Below, piece after piece: positions 4,028 through 36,875 of a stretch of 37,657 bases of DNA. The position numbers and the translations under genes are program-made. Positions within the stretch are counted from its first letter, which is position 1. Each line of letters begins with the position of its first letter. Source of the DNA: a bacterium (GTDB taxonomy: Bacteria; Fidelibacterota; Marinisomatia; Marinisomatales; UBA1611); the NCBI GenBank assembly GCA_038127595.1, contig JAYPIC010000015.1, positions 1-37,657 of the forward strand, written 5' to 3'. The notes beneath the pieces were generated by a model, which was given only the letters and a program-made list of their open reading frames with translations, had not been told where the DNA came from and made no database searches.

Positions 4028-4110
4028 AATTTTTACTTTGCTTAGTTATATATAAGTTAATATAATATTAAAAATATGAGCTATTTTGATTTAAAGAGGA
4101 AGAGTATTCA

Positions 4111-5358
4111 TTGAATAAAATATTATTTATTATTATAATTTTTTTAAGCTGTTCAGGAAATAAAAAGGAATTTTCTCTTACAAGCATTAATTACACTATG
4201 TGGAAAGACTTTATTAAACCTACTGAAAAAGAGCTTGCATGGGCTCAAATTCCTTGGAGGACTACTTTCTATGATGGACTTATTGATGCAGATAAATTTA
4301 ATAAACCACTTCTTTTATGGGTTATGAATGGGCATCCATTAGGGTGCACATGAAATAACGGAGCAGCGGGCCGGAGGTCTGTTTGGTCAGATTCGAGAGT
4401 AATTGATATAGCAAAAAATTTTGTGGCTTCAACAGACGAAGTTTGGCGTTTACAAGGCGCAAATGATGAAGATGCTTTAATGTTTCAGTCTATCGCAAAC
4501 AAGGGGCACTATCGAAAAAAAGGTGGTTCTAGGCAAGGCATATATGTTCTAAGTCCCAGTGGTCAACTATTAAGTTCAGTTAATTCACTTAATCCGGATG
4601 TTGTTTTGGAGATTATCAAAGAGGGTTTAAAGAAATGGAATATGCTTCCTGCAACTCAAAAATCGCTTCCCGAGGATTTTACTAAAAAAATTAAGCATCG
4701 TTGGGAAGATAGCTACCCCATTGATGGTTTGATATTACAAGGAGCAAAGTCTGATTTGTTATCAGATCCTCCAAGTTTTGATAATAGAGGTGATCGGTGG
4801 AATATGGATCACATATGGTTTAATAAAGAGGAAGCTTTACTTTGGGTTCCAAAGGACCAAATTGTTGGTAGTATTCAGGAGTGTCCAGAATTAATAAAAG
4901 AGAGGTTATTTAGGTTTCATTTTGTAGATAATGTTAGAGGGCAAACTTTACCTTTTGCTCCTGAAGAAATTAAGCTCTCAAAATTAAGTTTAGAGGTGAC
5001 AAGTTCTACAGAATCCATCCTATCTTTTAGCATTAGTGGACGTGCCAACGCTGTAGCAAAAGGAGAATGGTTGCTTGGTGAGAATGATTGGACTCCAAAC
5101 CATAAGTTAGATCATGGAATAAAAACCCAAGTTCTAGGAAGTGCAACATTTGATAAAACGGTTAATCAATTCATAGAGTTTGAATTAGTCATCTTAGGGA
5201 AGTGGTTTGGTAAGACTCAAAATAATGGCAGGAAATTAGGGCCTGATAAAGGGAATATTGGCATTTTTTATACAATTTCAAATAATACAGAAACTAGTAT
5301 TATAGCTCCTGCATTTGTCGATATGTATAATGCTGATTGGATAAAAAAACCTTCATAA
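4111..5358 (+). CDS. Putative selenoprotein: 415-aa lipoprotein with a thioredoxin-like domain (CTU motif, Sec81) and an unknown C-terminal domain; joins track ORFs 4111-4353 and 4423-5358
   Basis: Both ORFs are in the same frame. The only interruption is the TGA at 4351-4353, and the frame stays open after it: ...NKPLLLWVMNGHPLGCT-U-NNGAAGRRSVWSDSRVIDIAKNFVASTDEV. A GC-rich hairpin follows the TGA. TTG start with AGAGG upstream; lipobox-like FLSC. Confidence 0.8.
4364..4385 (+). promoter_or_regulatory. Bacterial SECIS-like hairpin 1
   Basis: Stem AGCGGGCC (4365-4372) pairs with GGUCUGUU (4376-4383), with G-U pairs. The GGA loop starts 19 nt after the UGA. The stretch is a local GC island in AT-rich DNA. 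Confidence 0.65.
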
Positions 5359-5374
5359 GCTGAAGGAACTTTTT
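5350..5374 (+). terminator. Possible intrinsic terminator overlapping the stop codon of the selenoprotein gene
   Basis: CCTTCA-taagc-TGAAGG hairpin followed by aacTTTTT. Confidence 0.4.
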
Positions 5375-5437: not shown

Positions 5438-5454
5438 CTCAGTAAAATACTGAG
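5438..5454. repeat. Perfect inverted repeat upstream of the tolC-like gene (operator or leader hairpin)
   Basis: CTCAGTA-aaa-TACTGAG, followed by a T-rich tract, 33 nt before the ATG at 5488. Confidence 0.5.
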
Positions 5455-5487: not shown

Positions 5488-6831
5488 ATGAAAAAATACT
5501 TTATCACATTTCAGCTCATTATATGCTTTTTTTCTATTTGTAATGCTCAAATTTATGATCTTCCGGAATGCATTGAGATTGCATTAGAGAGAAAAAGAAC
5601 TTTGGTTTCAGCTGATCTTGATGTGCAGTCTGCAACCAAACAGGTAATTAGTTCTTATAGCGGTGTGCTGCCTTCAGTTAGTTTTTCTACAAATGGTGGT
5701 AAAACAAAATATCCAAATCAAGAAAGTATTGTCCCTGATCTTGTTAATCTTGAGATCGATACAATAAGTAGCGGTGAATCAAGTTATATGTCTGCTGGAG
5801 TATCAATTAATAAATCTATATATAATGGAGGACAATCTGTTAATGCAATTAAGCAAGCAAAAATAAACTTAGAGATTTCAAAACTTCGAGAAAGAAATAC
5901 AAAGATTTCGGTTATTCAAAATGTTACAAGAGCATACTATTCCCTTTTGAAATCCCAAGAGTTATTAGATGTGGCAAAAGAAAATTTAATTTTATCGCAA
6001 AAACAAATCGATTTAGTCCAAAAACAGTTCGAGCTTGGTTCGGTTAGTAAAACAGATTTTTTGAAAGCCAAAGTCTCTGTTGGGCAAGCAAGAGTTGAAC
6101 TTCTTAATAGAGAAACTTCGCTAGAGGCATCTAGAAGACAATTATTTAACGATATGGGGATGATAGATTTTGGACAGTCCATACAAGCTAGATCGAAAGA
6201 ATGGTCTCCAACATCTATACCAACTAGTGCAGAAGCACTAACATTGTTAAAAGAACAAAATCCTAATATATTAATTCAGCAATCACGAATTCAGTTAAAT
6301 AAACTTCAAGTAAAAATCGCTAAAGGTATGAGATCGCCTTCTATATTTGCATCTTTAGATTATTCAGCAAACGGTGATAATAGCGAAGAGTTAAAAGAAG
6401 CGTTTAAAGATGATTGGCGTTTAGGAGTAAATATGGGGGTTACTCTTCCGTTATACTCTGGGAACTCACTTTCATCTGCACAACAAAGAGCTAAAATAGA
6501 GCAACAAAAATCTGAAAATGATTATATAACTAATATAAATGACCTAAGAGTACAAATTGAACTAATTAGAAAATCAATTTTAAACTATGCTGAAATAATC
6601 CCAATTAATCAGGAAGTTGTTTTGTCTGCAGAGGAGGATTTAAAACTTGTGCAAGAAAAATACAGTGTTGGTTCAGCAACGATACTCGAGGTATTAGATG
6701 CACAAGTTTCTTTGATCCGATCAAATTCTAGCTTAATCAATATTATCCATGATGCTAGGGTGGAGGAGATGAACCTTAAGGCAATTCTTGGTGTCTTAGA
6801 TTTAGAATATCAAAATAAAGAAGAGCAATAA
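5488..6831 (+). CDS. TolC-family outer membrane efflux protein
   Basis: Signal peptide and two OEP repeats (FELGSVSKTDFLKA; YSVGSATILEVLDAQ). Confidence 0.92.
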   Translation: MKKYFITFQLIICFFSICNAQIYDLPECIEIALERKRTLVSADLDVQSATKQVISSYSGVLPSVSFSTNGGKTKYPNQESIVPDLVNLEIDTISSGESSYMSAGVSINKSIYNGGQSVNAIKQAKINLEISKLRERNTKISVIQNVTRAYYSLLKSQELLDVAKENLILSQKQIDLVQKQFELGSVSKTDFLKAKVSVGQARVELLNRETSLEASRRQLFNDMGMIDFGQSIQARSKEWSPTSIPTSAEALTLLKEQNPNILIQQSRIQLNKLQVKIAKGMRSPSIFASLDYSANGDNSEELKEAFKDDWRLGVNMGVTLPLYSGNSLSSAQQRAKIEQQKSENDYITNINDLRVQIELIRKSILNYAEIIPINQEVVLSAEEDLKLVQEKYSVGSATILEVLDAQVSLIRSNSSLINIIHDARVEEMNLKAILGVLDLEYQNKEEQ

Positions 6832-8078
6832 TGATAGAAATGATAAAGAAGAAAAAGTTTTGGATTACAATGATAATCATTTGTTTAGTTATCATTGGTG
6901 GTTATACAAAATTTTTTAAAGAAGATGACAATCTTTTTGTCACGGCTGAAGAGGTTGTAAAAAGAGATGTTATTCATAAAGTTAACGCAAGCGGTATCAT
7001 TCAGCCAGAAGAGGAAGTCCAAATTACTTCAATGGTCTCTGGTTGGATAACTGAGATAACTGTAATCGAGGGTGACACTGTAAAACCAGGTCAGCATCTT
7101 ATCAGCATAGATAAAAAACAATATCAAGCAGCTTATGATCAAGCTCTTTCACAGGTAAAATCTTCTAAAGCGAATTTGAAAAATGTTACTTCACAGCTTG
7201 AAAGGACAAAACAATTATTTGAGCAAAAACTTATTTCAAAGCAAGAGATTGAGCAGATTGAAGCGTCCTATGAATTAGCCTTAAGTCAGGTTGATCAGGC
7301 TAATGCAGCTTTATTATCAAGAGAAGATGAACTATCAAAAACAAAGTTAGTTGCACCTAAGTATGGTATTGTAACAAGTCTTACAAAAGAAGAAGGAGAA
7401 ATGGCATTAGGTGGGATGTTTAATCCTGGAGTTTTAATGACAATTGCTGATTTAAACCATATGGAAGTTTTGGTTGATGTAAATGAGAACGATGTCGTAA
7501 CAATCGATGTCGGAGATACAACTGAAATTGAAATTGATGCATTCCCTGACACACTTTTTTACGGATTAGTTAGCGAGATAGCTCATACTGCCCAAAATCT
7601 GAACATGGGTAGTCAACAGCAAGTTACAAATTTTAAAGTGAAGATAAAGATTCTTAACCCTCCTCATAAAATACGCCCAGGAATGAGTAGTACTGTTAAT
7701 ATCATTTCAGAAACAATAAAAAATACTTTATCGATCCCTATACAATCTCTTGTCTCTAGGCCTAAAAATTTTGAAGAGTTGACCGAAGAAGATAAGAAGA
7801 ATGATGATGATAGTGAGAGTAATTATTCAAATGCTAAAGAAGGTATCGATGTTGTGTTCATTCTAGTTGATAATTTTAATGGAAAAGAAACAGCTGAAGG
7901 TGAGAAGTATGCTATTGTAAAACCTGTAGATACTGGATTATCTAGTGAAAATTATTATGCTGTAAACACAGGCGTAGGTGAAGGCGACATCATTGTTACT
8001 GGAAGATATCGCGTTTTAAGTAAAGAGCTACAACATGGTATGAAAGTTTCTTTTAAAATAGAATCCAATTCATATTAA
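6831..8078 (+). CDS. Periplasmic adaptor (membrane fusion protein, MacA-like)
   Basis: N-terminal TM helix, lipoyl halves (SGWITEITVIEGDTVKPGQ; APKYGIV), coiled coil, IRPGMS. Shares a TAATG overlap with the tolC-like gene. Confidence 0.92.
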   Translation: MIEMIKKKKFWITMIIICLVIIGGYTKFFKEDDNLFVTAEEVVKRDVIHKVNASGIIQPEEEVQITSMVSGWITEITVIEGDTVKPGQHLISIDKKQYQAAYDQALSQVKSSKANLKNVTSQLERTKQLFEQKLISKQEIEQIEASYELALSQVDQANAALLSREDELSKTKLVAPKYGIVTSLTKEEGEMALGGMFNPGVLMTIADLNHMEVLVDVNENDVVTIDVGDTTEIEIDAFPDTLFYGLVSEIAHTAQNLNMGSQQQVTNFKVKIKILNPPHKIRPGMSSTVNIISETIKNTLSIPIQSLVSRPKNFEELTEEDKKNDDDSESNYSNAKEGIDVVFILVDNFNGKETAEGEKYAIVKPVDTGLSSENYYAVNTGVGEGDIIVTGRYRVLSKELQHGMKVSFKIESNSY

Positions 8079-8113
8079 TGAATTTGTTTACAGATAAAAA
8101 ATTTTAATCTACA

Positions 8114-8800
8114 TTGGAATTAATTAGTTTAAAGAGCATCTACAAAATTTACAATGTAGGTGGAGAGGAAGTGCGAGCTCTTGATGGAGTTGACCTTTCT
8201 ATAAATAATAATGAATACCTCTCAATCATGGGCCCCTCCGGCTCTGGAAAATCAACCATGATGAATATGATAGGATGTTTAGACAGCCCATCATCTGGAT
8301 TGTATGAATTTGAAGGTGAGAAAGTTCATATAATGGATGATAGCCAACTTGCCTCAATAAGAAATAGAAAAATTGGATTTGTTTTTCAAACATTTAACTT
8401 ATTACCAAAAGCAAGCGCACTACATAATGTTGAAATCCCCTTAGTGTATGCAAATATTAAGAAAGAGAAACGGCTTGAAATGGCATCGAATGCTCTTATT
8501 AGTGTTGGACTTGAAGATAGAATGCATCATCGCCCTAATGAATTGTCTGGAGGACAAAGGCAGCGGGTTGCAATAGCTCGTGCTTTAGTAAACGAGCCTT
8601 CAATAATACTAGCAGATGAACCAACCGGGAATCTCGATTCAAAAAGTGGACATGAAATAATGAAAATTTTTGATGAATTACATAGGTCAGGAAATACAAT
8701 AATTCTTGTTACTCACGAAGATGATATTGCTAAATACTCTAATCGTATAGTACGATTATTAGATGGTAAGGTAGTTTCTGATGAACCAGTTAAAAAGTAA
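8114..8800 (+). CDS. ABC transporter ATP-binding protein (MacB/LolD-like)
   Basis: Walker A GPSGSGKS, signature [28 protein letters not shown]. Confidence 0.95.
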
Positions 8801-10011
8801 TGTTCTCCCTTTTTTTTGAAAATTTAAAAATTTCTTTAATTGCGGTTTTTGCAAATAAAGTTAAATCGCTACTTACTGCTCTGGGAATTGTTATAGGGGT
8901 TTTTTCGGTTACGCTAATGGGCACACTTATTTCTGGATTAGATCGTTCCTTTGAAAGCAGTATGTCCTGGTTGGGTAAAGATATATTGTATGTCAGCAGG
9001 TACGAGTGGTTTAGTGATATGGAATGGTGGGAGGTAAAAAATAGACCTAGAATGAGGTCAGAGTATGTTAATCAGATTAAAAATCTATCTAAATATGCTC
9101 TAGCTGTCTCGCCAGTAATGCAGAGAGGTGCATCTCTTTCTTTTGATGACAAAGAGACACGGACTGAAATATTTGGGACAAATGAAGAGTATATGGAAAC
9201 TATCAGCACAGATATTCAGCAAGGAAGATTTTTCTCACAAAGTGAAGACAGGAATGGTTCGAGAGTCACGGTTATTGGCGATGGTATAAAAGAAGCATTT
9301 TTTGGATTTGAAGACCCTATTGGTAAGTATATTAAAATTGATAATGTAAAGTTTAGAGTAATTGGGGTATTAGAAAAGCAGGGCAAATTCTTAGGTCTTT
9401 TTAGTGTTGATAATCAGGCAATATTACCTTTGGGCGCTTATAAAAGAATTTTTTCTAAAAGAGGTTGGATGCGTTTAAGTGTGAAAGTTTCAGAAGATAA
9501 AGTTGAAGAAGGCTTAGATGAAATTTCAGGTGTAATGCGGCAGATAAGAGGTTTAAAACCAAGTCAAAAAAATGATTTTGCGATAAATCAGACAAAAGCA
9601 TTTGAATCGCAATATAACAAATTAAAACTAGCAATAGGCGGAACTGGTTATTTCATCACCTTGCTTTCTCTTATAGTAGGCGGTATTGGTATTATGAACA
9701 TAATGTTTGTAACTGTTAAAGAAAGGACAAGAGAGATTGGCGTTAGAAAAGCTATTGGAGCGACCAACGGTATGATACTTGGGCAATTTCTGATGGAAGC
9801 TGTAACGATATGCTTTTTTGCTGGTATTGTAGGCTTGGGGTCTGCATATGCTGTTAGCCTAGTGATAAATCAATTTTTCCCTTCTACTCTTCCTTTAGCA
9901 CTTTCAGTGTTCTCTATATTTATCAGTATGTTCGTTGGAGTTCTATCCGGTTTTATACCTGCGTACAAAGCATCAAAACTTGACCCAATTGATTCACTTC
10001 GGTATGAATGA
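8800..10011 (+). CDS. ABC transporter permease (MacB/FtsX family)
   Basis: SLLTALGIVIGV, periplasmic domain, GGIGIMNIMFVTVKERTREIGVRKAIGA, PAYKASKLDPIDSLRYE. Confidence 0.93.
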   Translation: MFSLFFENLKISLIAVFANKVKSLLTALGIVIGVFSVTLMGTLISGLDRSFESSMSWLGKDILYVSRYEWFSDMEWWEVKNRPRMRSEYVNQIKNLSKYALAVSPVMQRGASLSFDDKETRTEIFGTNEEYMETISTDIQQGRFFSQSEDRNGSRVTVIGDGIKEAFFGFEDPIGKYIKIDNVKFRVIGVLEKQGKFLGLFSVDNQAILPLGAYKRIFSKRGWMRLSVKVSEDKVEEGLDEISGVMRQIRGLKPSQKNDFAINQTKAFESQYNKLKLAIGGTGYFITLLSLIVGGIGIMNIMFVTVKERTREIGVRKAIGATNGMILGQFLMEAVTICFFAGIVGLGSAYAVSLVINQFFPSTLPLALSVFSIFISMFVGVLSGFIPAYKASKLDPIDSLRYE

Positions 10012-11261
10012 AAATGCTTTCTAGAAATTTAAAAAATATTCTTAAAGAAAGTTTCCACATGGCAATTGATGCCATTCGGCAAAATAAGCTTAGATCATCT
10101 TTAACGCTGCTTGGAATAAGTATAGGTGTATTTTCTGTAATAGGTGTAATGACAGCAATTAGGACTTTGGAATCATCTGTGGCCTCGGGGCTGAACGTTT
10201 TTGCCGCAAATACATTTGTGATTCAAAAGTATCCTGAAATACAAATTGGTAGGCGTGATAAAAAATATAGAAATAGAAAGAATATTGATTACAGTCAATA
10301 TAAAAAGTTAAAAGAAAGAGCAAAGCTTCCTGCTCTTGTTAGTGTGAGTGAGGGAAGCTCAATCAGAGATGTAAAGTATAAGGATAAAAAAGTAAATAGC
10401 TATGTTGAGCTTTTTGGAGGGGATGAAGGTAGTATAAGAATTTTTAAAACCTTTATAGCAGATGGTAGAAACATTGCTCCAGATGATGTTAGATATTCCA
10501 GGAATGTATGTGTTCTAGGAATGGACGTGGTTGATAGGCTTTTCCCTTTTGAAAACCCTCTATCAAAAAAGATACAGCTCAATGGATTAGACTACATTGT
10601 AATCGGTATAGCTGAAAAAAAGGGTGAGGCATTTGGGCAAAGCCAAGATAATTACATTGCAATTCCAATTACGAATTTTTTAAAAAAATTTTCTAATAAG
10701 TGGACATCATTAAGTATAAATATAGAGGCATCATCAGAGTTGGAATATGAAAAAACTAGGCAAGAAGCAATTGGCGTAATGAGGTCAATACGGAAAGTAG
10801 GACCTGGAGAAGAAAATGATTTTGAGATCGTTACTAGCGGTGGAATGATTGAAACGTTGTCGGGGTTTACAAGTGGAATAAAAGTATTTGCACTTTTAGT
10901 TAGTGTAATTGCTTTAGTTGTTGCAGGTATCGGAATTATGAATATAATGCTAGTTTCTGTTACCGAAAGAATAAAAGAGATAGGTATCAGAAAAGCTATT
11001 GGTGCGACAAAGCAAGATATTTTAACTCAATTTTTGATGGAAGCAGTATTTTTAAGTGAGTTTGGTGGTATTGCAGGCATAGTTTTTGGCGTAGGCGCGG
11101 GGAACATTGTTTCTTTTATATTTAATATACCGGCGGTCATCCCAATAGATTGGGCAATAATTGGTTTAGTAGTTTGCTCTGTGATTGGAATTGGTTTTGG
11201 TATCTACCCAGCTTGGAAAGCAGCGCAGCTAGATCCAATCGAATCTCTTCGCTTTGAATAG
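10008..11261 (+). CDS. ABC transporter permease (MacB/FtsX family), second paralog
   Basis: RSSLTLLGISIGV, AGIGIMNIMLVSVTERIKEIGIRKAIGA, PAWKAAQLDPIESLRFE. Confidence 0.93.
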   Translation: MKMLSRNLKNILKESFHMAIDAIRQNKLRSSLTLLGISIGVFSVIGVMTAIRTLESSVASGLNVFAANTFVIQKYPEIQIGRRDKKYRNRKNIDYSQYKKLKERAKLPALVSVSEGSSIRDVKYKDKKVNSYVELFGGDEGSIRIFKTFIADGRNIAPDDVRYSRNVCVLGMDVVDRLFPFENPLSKKIQLNGLDYIVIGIAEKKGEAFGQSQDNYIAIPITNFLKKFSNKWTSLSINIEASSELEYEKTRQEAIGVMRSIRKVGPGEENDFEIVTSGGMIETLSGFTSGIKVFALLVSVIALVVAGIGIMNIMLVSVTERIKEIGIRKAIGATKQDILTQFLMEAVFLSEFGGIAGIVFGVGAGNIVSFIFNIPAVIPIDWAIIGLVVCSVIGIGFGIYPAWKAAQLDPIESLRFE

Positions 11262-11405: not shown

Positions 11406-12128
11406 ATGATTGTAGGCATAATTCCAGCTAGGATAGGTTCAAAGAGATTCCCTAAAAAGATATTAGCCGACATTGATGGTAAGCCAATGGTTGTACATGT
11501 TGCCGAAAGGGCAATGCAATCAAAACTTTTAGAAAAAGTGATTCTAGCAATTGATTCCAATGAAGCAAAACAAGTTTTGTCTGATTTCGATTTAGAAATA
11601 GTAATGACTAGTAAAGACCATGTAAGTGGGACAGATAGAGTGACTGAAGTAGTAAAAGGGCTTGATTCTGCTGAGCTGATCATTAACATTCAAGGTGATG
11701 AACCTTTACTAGAGCCTAAAGTCATTGATGGATTAATAAAGATTTTTGATGATAGCACAGTAAGTATGGGTACTGTCGTTAGTCGTAAAATAGGTATAAG
11801 AGATTATTTAGATAGGAATGTAGTAAAAGCCTTTTTAGATGAAAATCAAAATGCTTACGATTTTAAACGTGATATTTATGATTCTGATATAGGCGGAGTA
11901 TTTAGACACATTGGATTCTATGGCTTTGATAGGGATACATTGCTGCAATTTTCTTCATTACCTGCTTCTAAAAATGAGATAAAATATTCACTAGAACAGT
12001 TCAGAGCACTAGATAATGGTATTAAAATAAAAGCATTCATTTCTAATGCGCAGCAGCAAGCTGTTGATAGCCCTGAAGATCTTGACCGTGTCTTATCACA
12101 ATTAAATAAAATAAAGGACCCAGATTAA
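11406..12128 (+). CDS. kdsB: 3-deoxy-manno-octulosonate cytidylyltransferase
   Basis: IIPARIGSKRFPKK, SGTDR, INIQGDEP, RHIGFY, LEQFRAL, VDSPED. Confidence 0.93.
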   Translation: MIVGIIPARIGSKRFPKKILADIDGKPMVVHVAERAMQSKLLEKVILAIDSNEAKQVLSDFDLEIVMTSKDHVSGTDRVTEVVKGLDSAELIINIQGDEPLLEPKVIDGLIKIFDDSTVSMGTVVSRKIGIRDYLDRNVVKAFLDENQNAYDFKRDIYDSDIGGVFRHIGFYGFDRDTLLQFSSLPASKNEIKYSLEQFRALDNGIKIKAFISNAQQQAVDSPEDLDRVLSQLNKIKDPD

Positions 12129-12131
12129 AAT

Positions 12132-13760
12132 ATGAGTATTAAATCAAAAAATACTAAGTACATATTTGTTTTAGGAGGTGTTATGTCCGGATTGGGTAAA
12201 GGCATTGCAGCTTCTTCTATAGGATATATTTTAAAAAATTCTGGGTTGAAAGTTACCATATTAAAGTTAGATCCATATTTAAATGTTGACCCAGGGACGA
12301 TGAATCCTTACCAACATGGTGAGGTTTTCGTTTTAGATGATGGTTCTGAAACTGATTTAGATTTGGGCCATTATGAACGTTTTATTGATGTCAGCATGAC
12401 AAGGAACAATAATGCAACTGCAGGACAAATATATAGTACAGTATTAGAAAAAGAAAGAAAGGGTGAATATTTAGGCCAAACTGTTCAAGTTATTCCACAC
12501 GTAACAGATGAAATTATCAAAAGAATTAAAAGTGTAAATAAACCTAAAAAATATGACGTTGTGATTTGTGAAGTAGGTGGAACGGTCGGAGACATTGAAA
12601 GCTTGCCATTTATGGAGGCTATTCGTCAGCTTTCTCTTAATGTTGGTCCTCAAAATCATCTAATAATGCATGTGACTCTGTTGCCGTATGTTGATGCGAG
12701 CGGAGAACTTAAATCAAAGCCCACTCAGCATTCAGTAATGAAACTTAGAGAAATAGGATTATCTCCTGATATGATTTTATGTAGATCTCAACATCATATT
12801 GATAAATCTGTAAGAGAAAAAATCGCTTTGTTTTGTAATGTTCGCTCAGACCATGTTTTTGAAGGAAGAGATGTTCAAAGTATATATGAGGTCCCATTGC
12901 TATTACATGAACAAAATATGGGGCATTTAGTTAATGAGAGGTTACAATTAAATAAAGAGCCAGATTTATCTAAGTTAAAAAACTTTGTTCATAATTATAA
13001 AAATCCTCAGGTGGAGCTAACAATTGCAATGTGTGGTAAATATACCGAACTAATTGATTCATATAAAAGTGTGCTGGAATCATTTGTACATGCAGGAGTA
13101 GAAAATAGTGCAAGAGTAAATATTAAATGGGTAAAAACAGATAAGATTACCAATGATAAATCTGCTAGTAAGCAATTTAAAGATGTAGATGGAATTTTGA
13201 TTTTGCCAGGTTTTGGTTCTCGCGGCAGTGAAGGGAAAATTTTATCTTCAAAATATGCTCGTGAAAACAACATCCCATTTTTGGGGATATGTTTAGGGAT
13301 GCAATGCGCAATTATAGATTTTGCAAGGCATGTATGTGGATTGAAGGGGGCAAACTCTACTGAATTTAATAAGCGAACAAAACATCCTGTAATTGACCTC
13401 ATGGAATCTCAAAAAGCAATTAAAATAAAAGGCGGCACCATGAGATTAGGAGCTTATGATTGTACTATAAAAGCAGGAACAAAAACCTATTCAGCATACA
13501 GATCAAAAAAGATTTCTGAACGTCATAGGCATCGTTACGAAGTAAATAACAGATATAAAAATAGGCTCGAAAAAGCCGGGATGGTTATCTCAGGTGTTAA
13601 TGATTCATTAGGGGTGGTGGAAACAATTGAAATAAGTGGTCATCCTTGGTTTGTTGCAGGGCAGTTTCATCCTGAATTAAAAAGTAGAGTGAACAAAGCA
13701 CATCCTTTGTTCAGGGAGTTTATAAAAGCTTCAAAGAAATATAGCAAGAAAAGGAGTTGA
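12132..13760 (+). CDS. pyrG: CTP synthase
   Basis: GGVMSGLGKG, DPYLNVDPGTM, GICLGMQ, ERHRHRYE, QFHPE. Confidence 0.98.
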   Translation: MSIKSKNTKYIFVLGGVMSGLGKGIAASSIGYILKNSGLKVTILKLDPYLNVDPGTMNPYQHGEVFVLDDGSETDLDLGHYERFIDVSMTRNNNATAGQIYSTVLEKERKGEYLGQTVQVIPHVTDEIIKRIKSVNKPKKYDVVICEVGGTVGDIESLPFMEAIRQLSLNVGPQNHLIMHVTLLPYVDASGELKSKPTQHSVMKLREIGLSPDMILCRSQHHIDKSVREKIALFCNVRSDHVFEGRDVQSIYEVPLLLHEQNMGHLVNERLQLNKEPDLSKLKNFVHNYKNPQVELTIAMCGKYTELIDSYKSVLESFVHAGVENSARVNIKWVKTDKITNDKSASKQFKDVDGILILPGFGSRGSEGKILSSKYARENNIPFLGICLGMQCAIIDFARHVCGLKGANSTEFNKRTKHPVIDLMESQKAIKIKGGTMRLGAYDCTIKAGTKTYSAYRSKKISERHRHRYEVNNRYKNRLEKAGMVISGVNDSLGVVETIEISGHPWFVAGQFHPELKSRVNKAHPLFREFIKASKKYSKKRS

Positions 13761-13763
13761 TCG

Positions 13764-14576
13764 TTGAGGGATATTAAAGTCGGGAATGTTATTTTTGGAA
13801 AGGATAATCTAGGTATAATTGCAGGGCCTTGCGTTATTGAAAACCGCGACCATTCTTTAGAAATGTCTTATGCTATAAAAGAAGTTTCTGAGGATGTAGG
13901 CATTCCAATTATTTTTAAAAGTTCATTTGATAAGGCCAATAGAACTTCAATAAAATCTTTCCGAGGTCCTGGAATTCAGGAAGGCATGAGAATTTTAAGT
14001 GATGTAAAAACTGAAACAGGGCTGAAAGTGTTAACAGACATACATTCCCCAGATCAGGCAGGTCTAGTTTCAGATGTAGTGGATATCATTCAAATTCCAG
14101 CATTTCTGAGTAGGCAAACAGATCTTTTAATTGCTGCTGCAAAAACGGGAAAACCAATCAATATAAAAAAAGGACAATTTCTTGCTCCTTGGGATGTTGA
14201 ACATATCGTAAAAAAAGTTGAGGAATCTGGATCTCAAAATATATTGCTAACGGATAGAGGTACTCAATTTGGTTACAATAATTTGGTTGCAGATATGCGT
14301 GCTATACCTTTGATGAAACAATTTGGTTACCCTGTCATTTTTGATGCAACACATAGTGCTCAACTTCCTGGAGGTAGCGGTGGGCATTCTTCTGGTATGA
14401 GAGATATGATACCTACATTAGCACGAGCTGCTGTTGCAGCAGGGTGTAATGGTGTTTTTATGGAAGTTCACAATAATGTTGATAAGGCTAAGTCAGACGC
14501 CGCTACTCAGTGGCCGTTAGATAAACTAGCTACACTTTTAATTGAATTAAAAAAAATACACAATTCACTAAGGTAA
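13764..14576 (+). CDS. kdsA: KDO 8-phosphate synthase
   Basis: AGPCVIE, KSSFDKANRTS, QIPAFLSRQTD, KKGQF, FDATHS. The Cys suggests the metal-dependent class. Confidence 0.96.
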   Translation: MRDIKVGNVIFGKDNLGIIAGPCVIENRDHSLEMSYAIKEVSEDVGIPIIFKSSFDKANRTSIKSFRGPGIQEGMRILSDVKTETGLKVLTDIHSPDQAGLVSDVVDIIQIPAFLSRQTDLLIAAAKTGKPINIKKGQFLAPWDVEHIVKKVEESGSQNILLTDRGTQFGYNNLVADMRAIPLMKQFGYPVIFDATHSAQLPGGSGGHSSGMRDMIPTLARAAVAAGCNGVFMEVHNNVDKAKSDAATQWPLDKLATLLIELKKIHNSLR

Positions 14577-14579
14577 AAG

Positions 14580-15107
14580 ATGGAAGATTATAATAAAATT
14601 AAAATTATTATTTCGGATATTGATGGTGTTTGGACAGATGGCTCAGTGTATAAAGGCACTGATAATATGGAGTTTAAAAAATTTTCTGTATTTGATGGTG
14701 TGGGTGTGGCTTATGCAAGAGCTGCAGATTTGAAAATTGCAATTATCTCTGCTAGGTATTCTCCTGCTACTGAGTATAGAGCGAAAGAGTTAAATATTGA
14801 GGACTGTTATAATGGAGGTCTAAATAAACTTCATGCATATAACGAAATAAAACAAAAATATTCACTTTCGGATGATATGATTGCTTATTTGGGCGACGAT
14901 ATGGTCGATCTACCTGTCATGGAATTAGTTGGGTTACCTATTGCTGTAGCAAATTCAACTCCTGAAATCTTAAAGGTAGCGAAGCACATAACAAAAGTAA
15001 AAGGCGGTGAAGGTGCGTTTAGAGAAGCCGTTGAGTATATAATAAAAATGCAGGGTAGAACAAAAGAAGTCACAAAGAAGATGGTTGAAAGGGTTTTAAA
15101 TAGTTGA
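14580..15107 (+). CDS. kdsC: KDO 8-phosphate phosphatase (HAD family)
   Basis: DIDGVWTDG, YLGDDMVD, GGEGAFRE. Confidence 0.92.
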   Translation: MEDYNKIKIIISDIDGVWTDGSVYKGTDNMEFKKFSVFDGVGVAYARAADLKIAIISARYSPATEYRAKELNIEDCYNGGLNKLHAYNEIKQKYSLSDDMIAYLGDDMVDLPVMELVGLPIAVANSTPEILKVAKHITKVKGGEGAFREAVEYIIKMQGRTKEVTKKMVERVLNS

Positions 15108-15637
15108 GCTATAATAATCTAATATGTGCAATTATTTCTTTCTTATTAATAAATGGGTGTTCTAAAGAATCACCAAATGAAGAATTAAGTAAAGGAGTAG
15201 ATTTCCCTGACCAAGAAAGTTGGGGTGTTACAATTATATTGACAGATTCCTCTATTGAAAGAGCACGGGTCAAATCTGGTCATTTAGAAAAATATAATCA
15301 GAAGCAGCATATTTTATTAGATGAAAATGTAGAAGTAGATTTTTTTGATAAGAAGCAAAAACATGTCGCGGTACTTAATAGTTTTAAAGCAGAGGTTGAT
15401 CAGAAAACGAATAACATGAAAGCCGTTGGTAATGTAATTGCTATTTCTGATAGTGGGATTACTCTATATACTGATACACTTTATTGGGATGCAAAAAATG
15501 AAAAAATGAGCACAGAAGACTCTGTAATGATAACAACGTTAGAAAAAGATACATTATATGGTATTGGATTTGAATCAGACTCTGATCTTGAAAATTGGAA
15601 AATACTAAACCCATCAGGTGTGACCGAGAGGAATTGA
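15104..15637 (+). CDS. lptC: LPS export periplasmic protein LptC
   Basis: Lipoprotein-like N-terminus (LINGC), beta-jellyroll pattern (GNVIA, LYTDTLYWD, LYGIGFESD), and position between kdsC and lptB. Confidence 0.85.
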   Translation: MSYNNLICAIISFLLINGCSKESPNEELSKGVDFPDQESWGVTIILTDSSIERARVKSGHLEKYNQKQHILLDENVEVDFFDKKQKHVAVLNSFKAEVDQKTNNMKAVGNVIAISDSGITLYTDTLYWDAKNEKMSTEDSVMITTLEKDTLYGIGFESDSDLENWKILNPSGVTERN

Positions 15638-15638
15638 T

Positions 15639-16382
15639 TTGAGTGTAAAAAATAAAAAATCGTTGTCTGCAAAAGGATTACATAAACAATATGGTTCAAG
15701 AATGGTTGTAAACGATGTTGATATTTCTGTAAATCAAAAAGAAGTTGTTGGCCTACTGGGTCCCAACGGAGCAGGAAAAACCACTACATTTTATATGATA
15801 ACTGGAATGGTTAAACCCACAAAAGGAAATATTTATTTAGACGATGATGATATCACAAATGACCCGATGTATAGACGAGCTCGTAAAGGAGTTGGTTATC
15901 TAGCACAAGAACCATCAATTTTTTCAAAGCTAACTGTTGAGAATAATCTTAAGCTTGTTCTTGAGATGAGAAAAGATCTATCAAAAGATGAGCAAAATGA
16001 AAAACTAGATTCGCTTTTAGATGATTTTTCAGTTACATCACTTAGAAAAAGTAAAGGGGGGACACTTTCAGGAGGTGAGAGAAGGAGGGTTGAGATTGCT
16101 AGAACCCTTTGTATGGATCCTGATTTTGTATTGCTTGATGAGCCTTTTGCTGGCGTAGATCCAATTGCAGTTGAAGAGATACAGTCAATAGTGAATTCAC
16201 TTAAAGAAAGAAATATCGGCGTATTAATAACAGATCACAATGTTAGGGAGACTCTATCTATAACTGACCGCTCTTATCTGCTTTTTAACGGGCAAATTTT
16301 AAAATCGGGGACTTCTGAATTTTTAGCTAATGATAAAGAAGCAAAGAGACTTTATCTTGGAGAAAAATTTAGACTAGATTAA
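15639..16382 (+). CDS. lptB: LPS export ABC ATPase
   Basis: GLLGPNGAGKTTTFYM, YLAQEPSIF, LSGGERRRVEIAR, DEPFAGVDP, ITDHNVRETL. Confidence 0.96.
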   Translation: MSVKNKKSLSAKGLHKQYGSRMVVNDVDISVNQKEVVGLLGPNGAGKTTTFYMITGMVKPTKGNIYLDDDDITNDPMYRRARKGVGYLAQEPSIFSKLTVENNLKLVLEMRKDLSKDEQNEKLDSLLDDFSVTSLRKSKGGTLSGGERRRVEIARTLCMDPDFVLLDEPFAGVDPIAVEEIQSIVNSLKERNIGVLITDHNVRETLSITDRSYLLFNGQILKSGTSEFLANDKEAKRLYLGEKFRLD

Positions 16383-16385
16383 TTA

Positions 16386-17726
16386 ATGCCTCGTTTATCC
16401 CAGAAACTTGAACAAAAACAAAAACTTGCACCGAGGCAAGTTCTTCAAGCTCGACTTCTTCAACTAAACACATTAAACCTTGAGCAGGCTATACTAAAAG
16501 AGCTTGAGTTAAATCCTATTTTAGAGCAGGTTGAGCCAGAAGATTTTGAAGAAAAATCGATGGCAGAAGAAATATTAGAAGATATGGATGCTCCGATTGA
16601 AGATGTATATACCGATGAAAGCTCCTATTATATAGAACAAGAGAAAAGCGATCTGCCATTACCAGACAGAACGACTTTCATAGAAAAAATAATTGAACAA
16701 TTAAAAGACCTCGGTCTATCAGATCTGGAGAGAGAAATTGCGGAAGATATTCTTTGGAATATAAATGAGAGGGGTTATTTAGATACGGATTTGATTTTAA
16801 TAGCAGATAATTTTGAATTAGAAGAACAAGACATTGAACCAATTTTATTTTCTATTCAAAGGATGGAGCCAAAGGGGCTTGGCGCAAGAGATTTGAAAGA
16901 ATGTCTAAGTGTACAAATTGAGGAAGATAAAGAATCACATGCTTATATCATTTTATCAAAATATTTTGATGATTTTATGCATAAAAGGTATGAAAAAATT
17001 AAAACCAAACTTAAATGCACCAGTGAAGAACTTCATGATGCTGTTGAAATAATTTCTAAACTAAATCCTCGTCCTGGTGAAGGCTATGCTGATAATTTTC
17101 AAGTAATCATACCTGATGTAATTGTAAGAGAAGATGGAGAGGATTGGTTAATAACAACTAACGACGGTGGTATTCCGGAATTGAGAATTAGTAAAACATA
17201 TGAAGATGGTGTTGAAAATGGGGAGTATAGTGGTAAGGCGAAATCATTCATACGTGAAAAAATGGACTCTGCTAATTGGTTCATTGAGGCTGTAAAGCAG
17301 AGGCGAGTTACGATGGTCAATGTTATGAGGGCCATAATTAAATACCAGCCAGAATGGTTTGGAGGAGATATGAATCATCTTAGGCCATTAAAATTGCAAG
17401 ATATCGCAGAAGAAATTAATATGGACATTTCTACGATAAGTAGGTCAACTCGTGGTAAGTTTGTAGATACTCCTTATGGTGTTTTTGAATTAAAACATTA
17501 TTTTACTGATGCAATAGATCTTGGCAATGGACAAGTTCTTGGAACATTTGTAATAAAAAAAGAGTTACAAAACATAATTAATTCGGAAGATAAAACAAGC
17601 CCATTTAATGATGATACATTAGTACAATTATTAGATGATAAAGGATATAAGTTGGCAAGGAGAACTGTTGCTAAATATAGAGATCAATTAGGTCTCCCAG
17701 TTGCGAGACTTAGAAAAGAAATTTAA
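16386..17726 (+). CDS. rpoN: RNA polymerase sigma-54 factor
   Basis: Q/L-rich region I, ELNPILE, STISR helix-turn-helix, RpoN box ARRTVAKYR. Confidence 0.96.
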   Translation: MPRLSQKLEQKQKLAPRQVLQARLLQLNTLNLEQAILKELELNPILEQVEPEDFEEKSMAEEILEDMDAPIEDVYTDESSYYIEQEKSDLPLPDRTTFIEKIIEQLKDLGLSDLEREIAEDILWNINERGYLDTDLILIADNFELEEQDIEPILFSIQRMEPKGLGARDLKECLSVQIEEDKESHAYIILSKYFDDFMHKRYEKIKTKLKCTSEELHDAVEIISKLNPRPGEGYADNFQVIIPDVIVREDGEDWLITTNDGGIPELRISKTYEDGVENGEYSGKAKSFIREKMDSANWFIEAVKQRRVTMVNVMRAIIKYQPEWFGGDMNHLRPLKLQDIAEEINMDISTISRSTRGKFVDTPYGVFELKHYFTDAIDLGNGQVLGTFVIKKELQNIINSEDKTSPFNDDTLVQLLDDKGYKLARRTVAKYRDQLGLPVARLRKEI

Positions 17727-36419: not shown

Positions 36420-36875
36420 ATGTTATCAATCGGATCAATCGCCCCTGAATTTCAATTAAGTGATCAGGATGGTAATTCAGTAAATATTAAAGATTTTGAG
36501 GGCCAAAAAGTTCTTCTATGGTTTTATCCTAGAGCAAGCACGCCTGGCTGAACAACGCAAGGTCAAGGACTCCGGGATGAGTTTAAAAATTTTAAAAAAT
36601 ATAATACAGTAGTTTTAGGCATGAGTGCTGATTCAGTAAAGGCTCAAAAGAACTTTTGTTCAAAACAAGAGTTTCCATTCCAATTACTTTCAGACCCTGA
36701 AAAAGAAACGATTAGAGCCTATGAAGCTATTGGCTTAAAGAAAATGTATGGTAGAGAATATGAGGGTATCTTGAGAGTAGCATATTTGATAGATGAAAAT
36801 GGTAAAATTGAAAGAGCATACGAGAAGGTTAGCCCAAAAACCCATGCTGATGAAGTCTTAAAGGATTTAACATAA
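36420..36875 (+). CDS. bcp: Selenocysteine-containing BCP/PrxQ peroxiredoxin (151 aa, Sec44); the track reports only the 3' part
   Basis: The ATG at 36420 gives MLSIGSIAPEFQLSDQDGNSVNIKDFEGQKVLLWFYPRASTPG-U(TGA 36549-36551)-TTQGQGLRDEF..., in frame with 36621-36875. The TGA occupies the peroxidatic Cys of the PxxxTxxC motif. The conserved Arg is in GILRVAYLID. Confidence 0.9.
36567..36584 (+). promoter_or_regulatory. Bacterial SECIS-like hairpin 2
   Basis: Stem GGACUC (36567-36572) pairs with GAGUUU (36579-36584). The CGGGAU loop starts 21 nt after the UGA. Confidence 0.6.

Follow-up and report, generated by a model that had tools for sequence, protein, structure and literature searches.

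A predicted exported selenoprotein of Marinisomatota with a thioredoxin-fold domain and a beta-rich C-terminal domain

Introduction

Does the TGA codon that separates two open reading frames near the start of a contig from a bacterium of the order Marinisomatales (GCA_038127595.1, contig JAYPIC010000015.1) end a short gene, or does it encode a residue within a longer one? The window analyzed here is the whole stretch of 37,657 nucleotides of this contig, belonging to a genome of 2.0 Mb with 33% GC and 95.8% completeness. In bacteria, selenocysteine (Sec) is inserted at a UGA codon that is accompanied by a SECIS element adjacent on the 3' side. A preliminary description of the locus, made from the sequence alone, proposed a single exported selenoprotein with a thioredoxin fold and a C-terminal domain that could not be named. 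This core proposal was supported in all computational tests that were run, and nothing that had been named beforehand as evidence against it was found across the family.

Results

Reading frame

Positions 4111-5358 constitute one frame of 415 codons, and the only interruption is the TGA at 4351-4353 (Table 1). Translation of this frame with TGA as Sec gives 415 residues with one recoded step, U81, and contains the elements that had been read from the letters, namely F-L-S-C14, C79-T80-U81 (local sequence G-H-P-L-G-C79-T80-U81-N-N-G) and the downstream segment GIYVLSPSGQLL. Under table 11, the same region is called as two ORFs of one frame, 4111-4353 (80 aa) and 4423-5358 (311 aa), with 69 nt free of stops in between; retranslation thus agrees with the initial reading of two frames parted only by the TGA and joined by 69 stop-free nucleotides. 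The forecast that gene callers would split the gene proved correct as well, the public entries being truncated hypothetical proteins (287-292 aa in NCBI). The named close homologs come from metagenome-assembled genomes of Candidatus Marinimicrobia/Neomarinimicrobiota; two records at 95% identity are labelled otherwise, as 'bacterium MED-G177' and 'Saprospirales'.

Table 1. Features of the locus, in window coordinates
Feature	Position	Strand	Description	Basis
Full CDS	4111..5358	+	415 aa, TTG start, TAA stop, UGA81 as selenocysteine	TGA=U translation, loci comparison
Purine-rich stretch resembling a ribosome-binding site	4095..4104	+	ahead of TTG start; putative function	seen in sequence
Lipoprotein signal peptide (predicted)	4111..4152	+	ends in lipobox F-L-S-C14	pattern only
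Thioredoxin-fold domain	4237..4653	+	residues 43-181; DsbD-gamma / Thioredoxin_7 / ERp18-AGR type	AlphaFold, Foldseek, VIA
Cys79-Thr80-Sec81	4345..4353	+	Sec codon TGA 4351-4353; helix after strand 1 begins directly downstream	
Bacterial SECIS-type hairpin, within CDS	4361..4388	+	apical loop 4373-4375 starts with G, 19 nt past UGA	
Beta-rich C-terminal domain	4678..5355	+	residues 190-415; no confident fold assignment	AlphaFold, VIA, Foldseek
Terminator-like hairpin	5350..5366	+	overlaps stop codon	consensus scan
Second terminator-like hairpin	5438-5454			consensus scan

The TGA at 4351-4353 is not a sequencing error, because independent contigs cross the codon unaltered: a contig from DNA run X4 covers 4285-4605 with 0 differences, one from RNA-library run X16 covers 4147-4384 with 0 differences, and one from RNA-library run X15 covers 4070-4431 with 5 differences, none of them at the codon. 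RNA-library contigs lie over the gene in three runs and are uninformative on transcription, strand and level. The scan for terminator consensus returned 4 sites versus 0.7 expected, which is a count of patterns and not functional evidence.

Conservation of the UGA codon

The gene is present in 32 of the 401 genomes of the phylum, all within one order, and a profile search recovered the same 32 carriers. Among the 33 matches in these genomes, 31 cross the site, each with one TGA, and the other two are C-terminal pieces. The TGA occupies the identical codon in all 30 Marinisomatota loci that were fetched. A metagenome scan with distant alignment confirmed 187 relatives, of which 80 were kept and 79 parsed; using a single peptide pattern, by which divergent Cys forms may be missed, it found TGA at the same codon in 79/79 loci (72 distinct, GC 31-77%). 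The 80th locus has a stop at the same place, with the codon not printed. Neither TGG nor TAA or TAG, the last two of which the preliminary description had named as counter-evidence, occurs at the site in these 30 + 79 loci, and coding homology extends to both sides of the TGA in 30/30 and 79/79 of them. Of the 120 N-terminal fragments listed from protein databases, 119 stop exactly ahead of the Sec codon, and among the matches listed the upstream motif was found in 0/120 longer homologs, the searches for short and for longer homologs both being limited by length.

Homologs with Cys in place of Sec, which the preliminary description had suggested searching for, were found. Among 14 full-length homologs spanning the site, picked from 150 listed representatives, six have Cys at the Sec column (P0164, P0165, P0176, P0200, P0232 and P0256), two of these six being devoid of Cys79; one has Trp, and the remaining seven have some other residue at position 81, neither Cys nor one produced by read-through, which indicates that non-redox forms exist. 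Judged from these comparisons of sequences, the product of 4111-5358 is very nearly certain to be a selenoprotein with the UGA encoding Sec81.

Several members of the family deviate in other respects. One locus (L036, genome G308) has an additional TAA in the C-terminal domain, and one genome (G399) has two copies of the gene, with 52% and 61% identity to the query. Seven members (P0143, P0165, P0127, P0182, P0188, P0218 and P0245) are fused to a kinase/kelch part, a SecDF head or one of several other long extensions that were identified by eye only. No paralog of the selenoprotein was found in its own genome, and a plasmid search with the protein gave no match.

SECIS-type hairpin

The hairpin that had been noted just after the TGA is present at 4361-4388, with the loop GGA 19 nt past the UGA and a folding energy of -12 kcal/mol; however, taken alone it is no stabler than shuffled sequences (z -0.97; 41 of 200 shuffles fold as stably), and its significance comes from the comparison with relatives. 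Third-position entropy at codons +5 to +12 is 0.70 bits, compared to 1.65 +/- 0.25 at 107 other sites, and these codons are the windows of lowest synonymous variation in the gene (30 loci). The codon of Gly+6 is GGC in 30/30 loci, whereas the other 21 conserved Gly codons vary. The bacterial SECIS rule is satisfied by 93 of the 95 distinct downstream segments, as compared to 28/291 (10%) low-GC and 220/568 (39%) high-GC control windows of the same genes; it should be noted that the rule was applied in our own implementation, which allows structures up to 2 kcal/mol above the minimum, and not in bSECISearch. The hairpin in the window conforms to the rule as given in PMC13188914. Folding all 95 segments jointly yields no consensus structure, because the register of the hairpin differs between the low-GC and high-GC groups. 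A SECIS-type constraint acting on the sequence that follows the UGA is shown by computation, and no covariation is claimed.

Selenocysteine machinery and the meaning of UGA

The sel genes, which the preliminary description had suggested searching for, are present in the genome with one reservation: selA, selD and tRNA-Sec (selC) were found, the selD itself holding a TGA, but selB contains in this assembly one TAA at codon 268 (G000:C71, near 6073; L003), where the sister species has TCA. Past this TAA, selB has accumulated 9 derived changes versus 7 in the sister, and the lack of an excess suggests an assembly error or a recent nonsense allele. The selB gene is intact in all ten other carriers tested. 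Of the 32 carriers, selA is complete in 26 and matched in part in 3, and no selA was found in the other 3, which are incomplete genomes; among carriers that are at least 90% complete, selA is found in 13/13. In one family (f26), both selA and the gene are absent (0/33). Since selA is widespread (297 of the 401 phylum genomes, with many selA-positive families that do not have the gene), its co-occurrence lends weak support. UGA is an ordinary stop in this genome, closing 7 of the 32 open reading frames of the window, including those of CTP synthase and radA; RF2 is present, and the sole tRNA with the TCA anticodon that was found is tRNA-Sec.

Other in-frame TGA codons were observed in this and related genomes. 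A second split selenoprotein gene, for a Bcp/PrxQ peroxiredoxin with the known TxxU motif, lies at 36420-36875 (+) of the window with its TGA at 36549-36551; table 11 calls just the 84-aa tail at 36621, and the hairpin downstream of this TGA is weak (-4.4 kcal/mol). Four further candidates with SECIS-like hairpins are located at G000:C5:26042 (-), C27:17554 (-), C11:1102 (+) and C23:9640 (+). By their motifs, we take the first two to be a TlpA-like UxxC protein extended by a long C-terminal part and an UshA-like CGU protein; the others are an unassigned protein of 750 codons and SelD. Deiodinase-like genes with an in-frame TGA were seen in five Marinisomatota genomes (L125-L129), one of which (G118) belongs to family f26, where selA was found in 0/33 genomes; this gene is on a short contig that may be misbinned.

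Thioredoxin-fold domain and active site

The AlphaFold model of the selenoprotein has a pLDDT of 95.7 and a pTM of 0.92, and the TGA split falls within one folded domain of it. Residues 43-181 match 3f9u (Foldseek E 5e-5; VIA Z 13.1, rmsd 2.6, 122 residues aligned), and the fold matches extend over DsbD-gamma-like thioredoxins, ERp18, AGR2/3 and DsbH (Z 10-13), in agreement with the thioredoxin fold with a redox site after the first strand that had been deduced from the sequence. When the protein was aligned by hhalign with the C-terminal domain of the genome's own DsbD (E 0.0026, probability only 11%, best of 501 against shuffles), Sec81 was paired with the first Cys of CxxC, G84 with the second and Q142 with the cis-Pro; an insertion of five residues with an invariant N-G-H-P lies ahead of Sec. 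Gly84 and Gln142 occupy these positions in 100% of 93 sequences, across which D109, E110 and P76 are invariant as well. Thr80 is conserved in 95%. Cys79 is found in 82/93 sequences, the residue elsewhere being mostly Gln, and is missing from 12 of the 70 distinct metagenome members; in three metagenome members, Cys is lacking from both nearby positions. Residue 122 is a distal Cys in 43/93 sequences and not in the protein described here.

The motif Cys79-Thr80-Sec81 is therefore present as originally read, but Cys79 is optional and CxU does not define the family; with Cys79 variable and Sec81 in the position of the first Cys, the defining feature is Sec. The lack of a second Cys (Gly84) and of cis-Pro, along with the optional Cys79, argues against a classical enzyme of dithiol exchange and in favor of a lone selenolate as the nucleophile. 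We consider it likely that Sec81 is the redox nucleophile.

C-terminal domain, export and neighborhood

Residues 190-415 modelled alone gave a pLDDT of 95.9 and long antiparallel strands, and the domain contains nine invariant polar residues (D215, N231, D233, E241, R265, D273, Q278, N372 and R374; 93 sequences). Foldseek found no match to it in PDB and BFVD at E<=0.001, and the best VIA match had Z 6.6, with generic beta-sheet matches only. An outer-membrane barrel was considered and rejected (rmsd 4-5, no C-terminal aromatic strand). The statement that this domain could not be named thus held: on the predicted model, its 226 residues have no confident fold match and the fold is unassigned, which does not demonstrate that the fold is new.

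The N-terminus consists of a basic N-region, a hydrophobic stretch and a lipobox Cys, as judged by pattern only, so that the protein would be exported and acylated at Cys14. The original assignment as a lipoprotein applies to Marinisomatota, where 25 of 28 loci have the lipobox pattern, but not to the high-GC members, where it was found in 4 of 57 loci and most have a hydrophobic N-terminus without a lipobox; lipid anchoring appears to be mostly Marinisomatota-specific.

The gene is solitary, flanked by a divergent amidase and a TolC/MacAB-type exporter. No conserved gene neighborhood was found, the neighbors following genus only, and 46 high-GC loci had no neighbors in common beyond close kin; hence, the wording 'redox system' used in the preliminary description is not supported. 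A cluster of 19 neighbors turned out to be an artefact of a common C-terminal sorting domain. At eleven loci (L010, L011, L015 and L017-L024), the convergent downstream neighbor on the opposite strand is a cysteine-rich protein with a C-terminal sorting domain, which occurs in several genera of the same family and presumably resembles peptide-N-glycosidase F. The window continues with ordinary housekeeping genes, i.e., the exporter with two permeases (5488-11261), followed by kdsB-pyrG-kdsA-kdsC-lptC-lptB-rpoN (11406-17726).

Discussion

Comparison with known families

The protein has no match in NCBIfam (June 2026, 18,950 models) at E<=1, and nothing relevant was found there among the 124 alignment members, in Pfam for the protein or these members, or among PDB sequences. 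The closest relatives by fold are DsbD-gamma / Thioredoxin_7 proteins (PF13899: 3f9u, DsbH 2ju5, ERp18 1sen, AGR2/3), which have the fold of residues 43-181 in common with it; unlike them, the present protein has UxxG in place of CxxC, Gln in place of cis-Pro, the five-residue insertion ahead of Sec and an extra domain of 226 residues. Three members matched PF13899 weakly (E 0.007-0.12), the best at 16.9 bits versus a curated cut-off of 27 bits. The thioredoxin-fold selenoproteins catalogued in Table 1 of PMC13188914 (Trx UxxC, DsbA-like, DsbG-like NF041057, Trx7/PDZ NF041199, SaoT and HUIPC) likewise have an in-frame UGA with SECIS, Sec at the active site and Cys homologs, whereas the present family differs in motif and architecture. 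None of the 119 families in that list corresponds by name, and none of its CxU entries (rhodanese form 3, UshA-like, ferredoxin-thioredoxin reductase and Brachyspira Sec.1) corresponds. Sec.1 shares CxU and a thioredoxin domain with the present protein, but according to PMC5330540 it is a small PF13192 protein from a three-gene cluster with Sec in an N-terminal extension ahead of the domain; identity was rejected, given that the architecture differs and PF13192 gave no match. TsoC (NF045708, motif NEPxGxxU) has the same P-x-G-x-x-U spacing, and was rejected because its model of 87 positions had no match in the genome at E<=10.

The initial impression of a mismatch with the classic families was correct in that no family matched, but both CxU motifs and exported bacterial selenoproteins had been described before, the latter in bioRxiv 10.1101/2022.07.06.499078, and so neither feature is new in itself. 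Motif searches gave no sequence in the GOS and Sargasso supplements (PMC2398784, 4 files; PMC1088965, 1 file) or the deep-Sep supplements (PMC12013277, 4 files), as far as these files extend, and none in the searched part of the BSepDB supplement, which does not include the family table; that database is described in the same source as built from previously known families (PMC13326102). No description of the family was found in the literature searched; Haft and Tolstoy 2025 and the groundwater candidates of Deng et al. 2026 could list it. The families of Haft and Tolstoy 2025 named in the review table of PMC13188914 bear NCBIfam accessions, and NCBIfam gave no match. These comparisons suggest that the protein, which is almost certainly a selenoprotein, represents a new family; the kind of protein is well known, the active site unusual.

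Proposed mechanism

SelB and tRNA-Sec would read the UGA with the help of the hairpin, yielding from a single gene an exported two-domain selenoenzyme that would be lipid-anchored in Marinisomatota. The Sec81 selenolate would attack a substrate in its oxidised form, most probably a small molecule, which may be held by the invariant H75, D109, E110, H133, R141 and Q142 together with residues of the C-terminal domain. Oxidised Sec81 may then be resolved by Cys79 to a selenenylsulfide, by analogy to human DIO1, the closest precedent for such a mechanism that was found, in which Cys124 resolves oxidised Sec126 in this way and is needed only for recycling, DIO2 having Ala at the Cys124 position (PMC9141512). 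In members without Cys79, an outside thiol would resolve the oxidised Sec directly. Re-reduction could be performed by envelope electron carriers such as DsbD/TlpA, and carriers of these types are encoded in the genome. We thus favor, at a probability of about 0.45, a small-molecule reductase or peroxidase over another role; its place in the periplasm or at the cell surface, acting as a reductase of a small oxidised substrate, is possible at a similar level of tentativeness. The substrate and the reductant are inferred, as is the role of the second domain. The mode of action may resemble that of a deiodinase or a one-Cys peroxidase, the protein being a member of neither family.

Alternative explanations

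It is very improbable that the locus encodes no selenoprotein at all, with UGA read as Trp, serving as a true stop between two genes or marking a pseudogene. One database fragment (P0157) does have Trp at the site, and selB is interrupted in the assembly. However, the Trp of P0157 is probably the product of a gene call under another code, UGA terminates ordinary genes of a genome in which only tRNA-Sec was found to have the matching anticodon, no TGG, TAA or TAG replaces the codon in the loci compared, and a split would cut one folded domain for which full-length Cys homologs exist. A monothiol selenoprotein similar to DsbG/DsbC, repairing or isomerising protein thiols of the envelope, with clients bound by the beta-rich domain, would be consistent with the export of the protein, with Sec in the attacking position and with the nearest folds, which are protein thiol-disulfide oxidoreductases (DsbD-gamma, DsbH, ERp18, AGR). 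Protein-disulfide oxidoreductases bind substrate strands via cis-Pro, and here this residue is replaced by invariant Gln142; the insertion with N-G-H-P ahead of Sec and the many invariant polar residues, which would resemble a small-molecule pocket, also argue against protein substrates, and we regard this explanation as rather unlikely. Binding or trafficking of a metal or metalloid (Hg, Cu, As), with Cys79/Sec81 and His75 or His133 as soft ligands, is suggested by the CxU next to an invariant His and by the existence of exported selenoproteins with proposed binding roles (SaoB and SaoX). Yet Cys79 is absent from some metagenome members, three of which have no nearby Cys at all, and no metal-handling neighbors recur; such a role is improbable.

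Slightly more doubtful is a deiodinase-like reductive dehalogenase of iodinated or brominated organic compounds. Similarly to DIO1/DIO3 and bacterial deiodinase-like proteins (PF00837), the present family has C-T-U after strand 1 (Cys124-Thr125-Sec126 in DIO1), an optional proximal Cys, as in DIO2, a Thr80 conserved in nearly all members, and an invariant Glu at Sec+29, compared to +30 in DIO1 and the bacterial proteins. Conversely, thioredoxin folds commonly have an acidic residue after strand 2. No homology to deiodinases is detectable: hhalign gave a probability of 0.15% against five bacterial deiodinase-like proteins (a shallow alignment), and PF00837 matched 0/124 alignment members at E<=0.01. 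The best 50 rows of each fold search contained no deiodinase crystal structure. The family has neither the U-P-P-F nor the E-A-H motif and carries a large extra domain, and many members are on high-GC contigs of unverified habitat. It would be a long shot to propose a new extracytoplasmic selenoenzyme class that combines a thioredoxin domain, remodelled around a deiodinase-like C-T-U site, with a domain whose fold has not been described, and that reductively dehalogenates or otherwise reduces small organics at the surface of uncultured bacteria; if true, this would be a convergent bacterial counterpart of deiodinases.

Significance

The family appears to be broad, including Marinisomatota and high-GC members. 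Protein databases at 90% clustering contain 401 N-terminal fragments and 378 C-terminal or longer matches, and a profile-free search returned 651 clusters at 50% identity (E<=1e-10), so this may be a large uncatalogued bacterial selenoprotein family that public annotation stores as two truncated halves, each a hypothetical protein. Reports of new bacterial selenoprotein families appear regularly, and the function proposed for the present one is conjectural. Its close members are mostly Sec-coded, with few Cys forms, and discovery methods based on Cys fail on such families; the natural Cys homologs ease the start of biochemistry. The interest of the family lies in the unusual active site, with Sec first and neither a second Cys nor cis-Pro, combined with a domain whose model is confident and matches no fold, and in the use of selenium that it would imply in the envelope of the abundant marine Marinisomatota.
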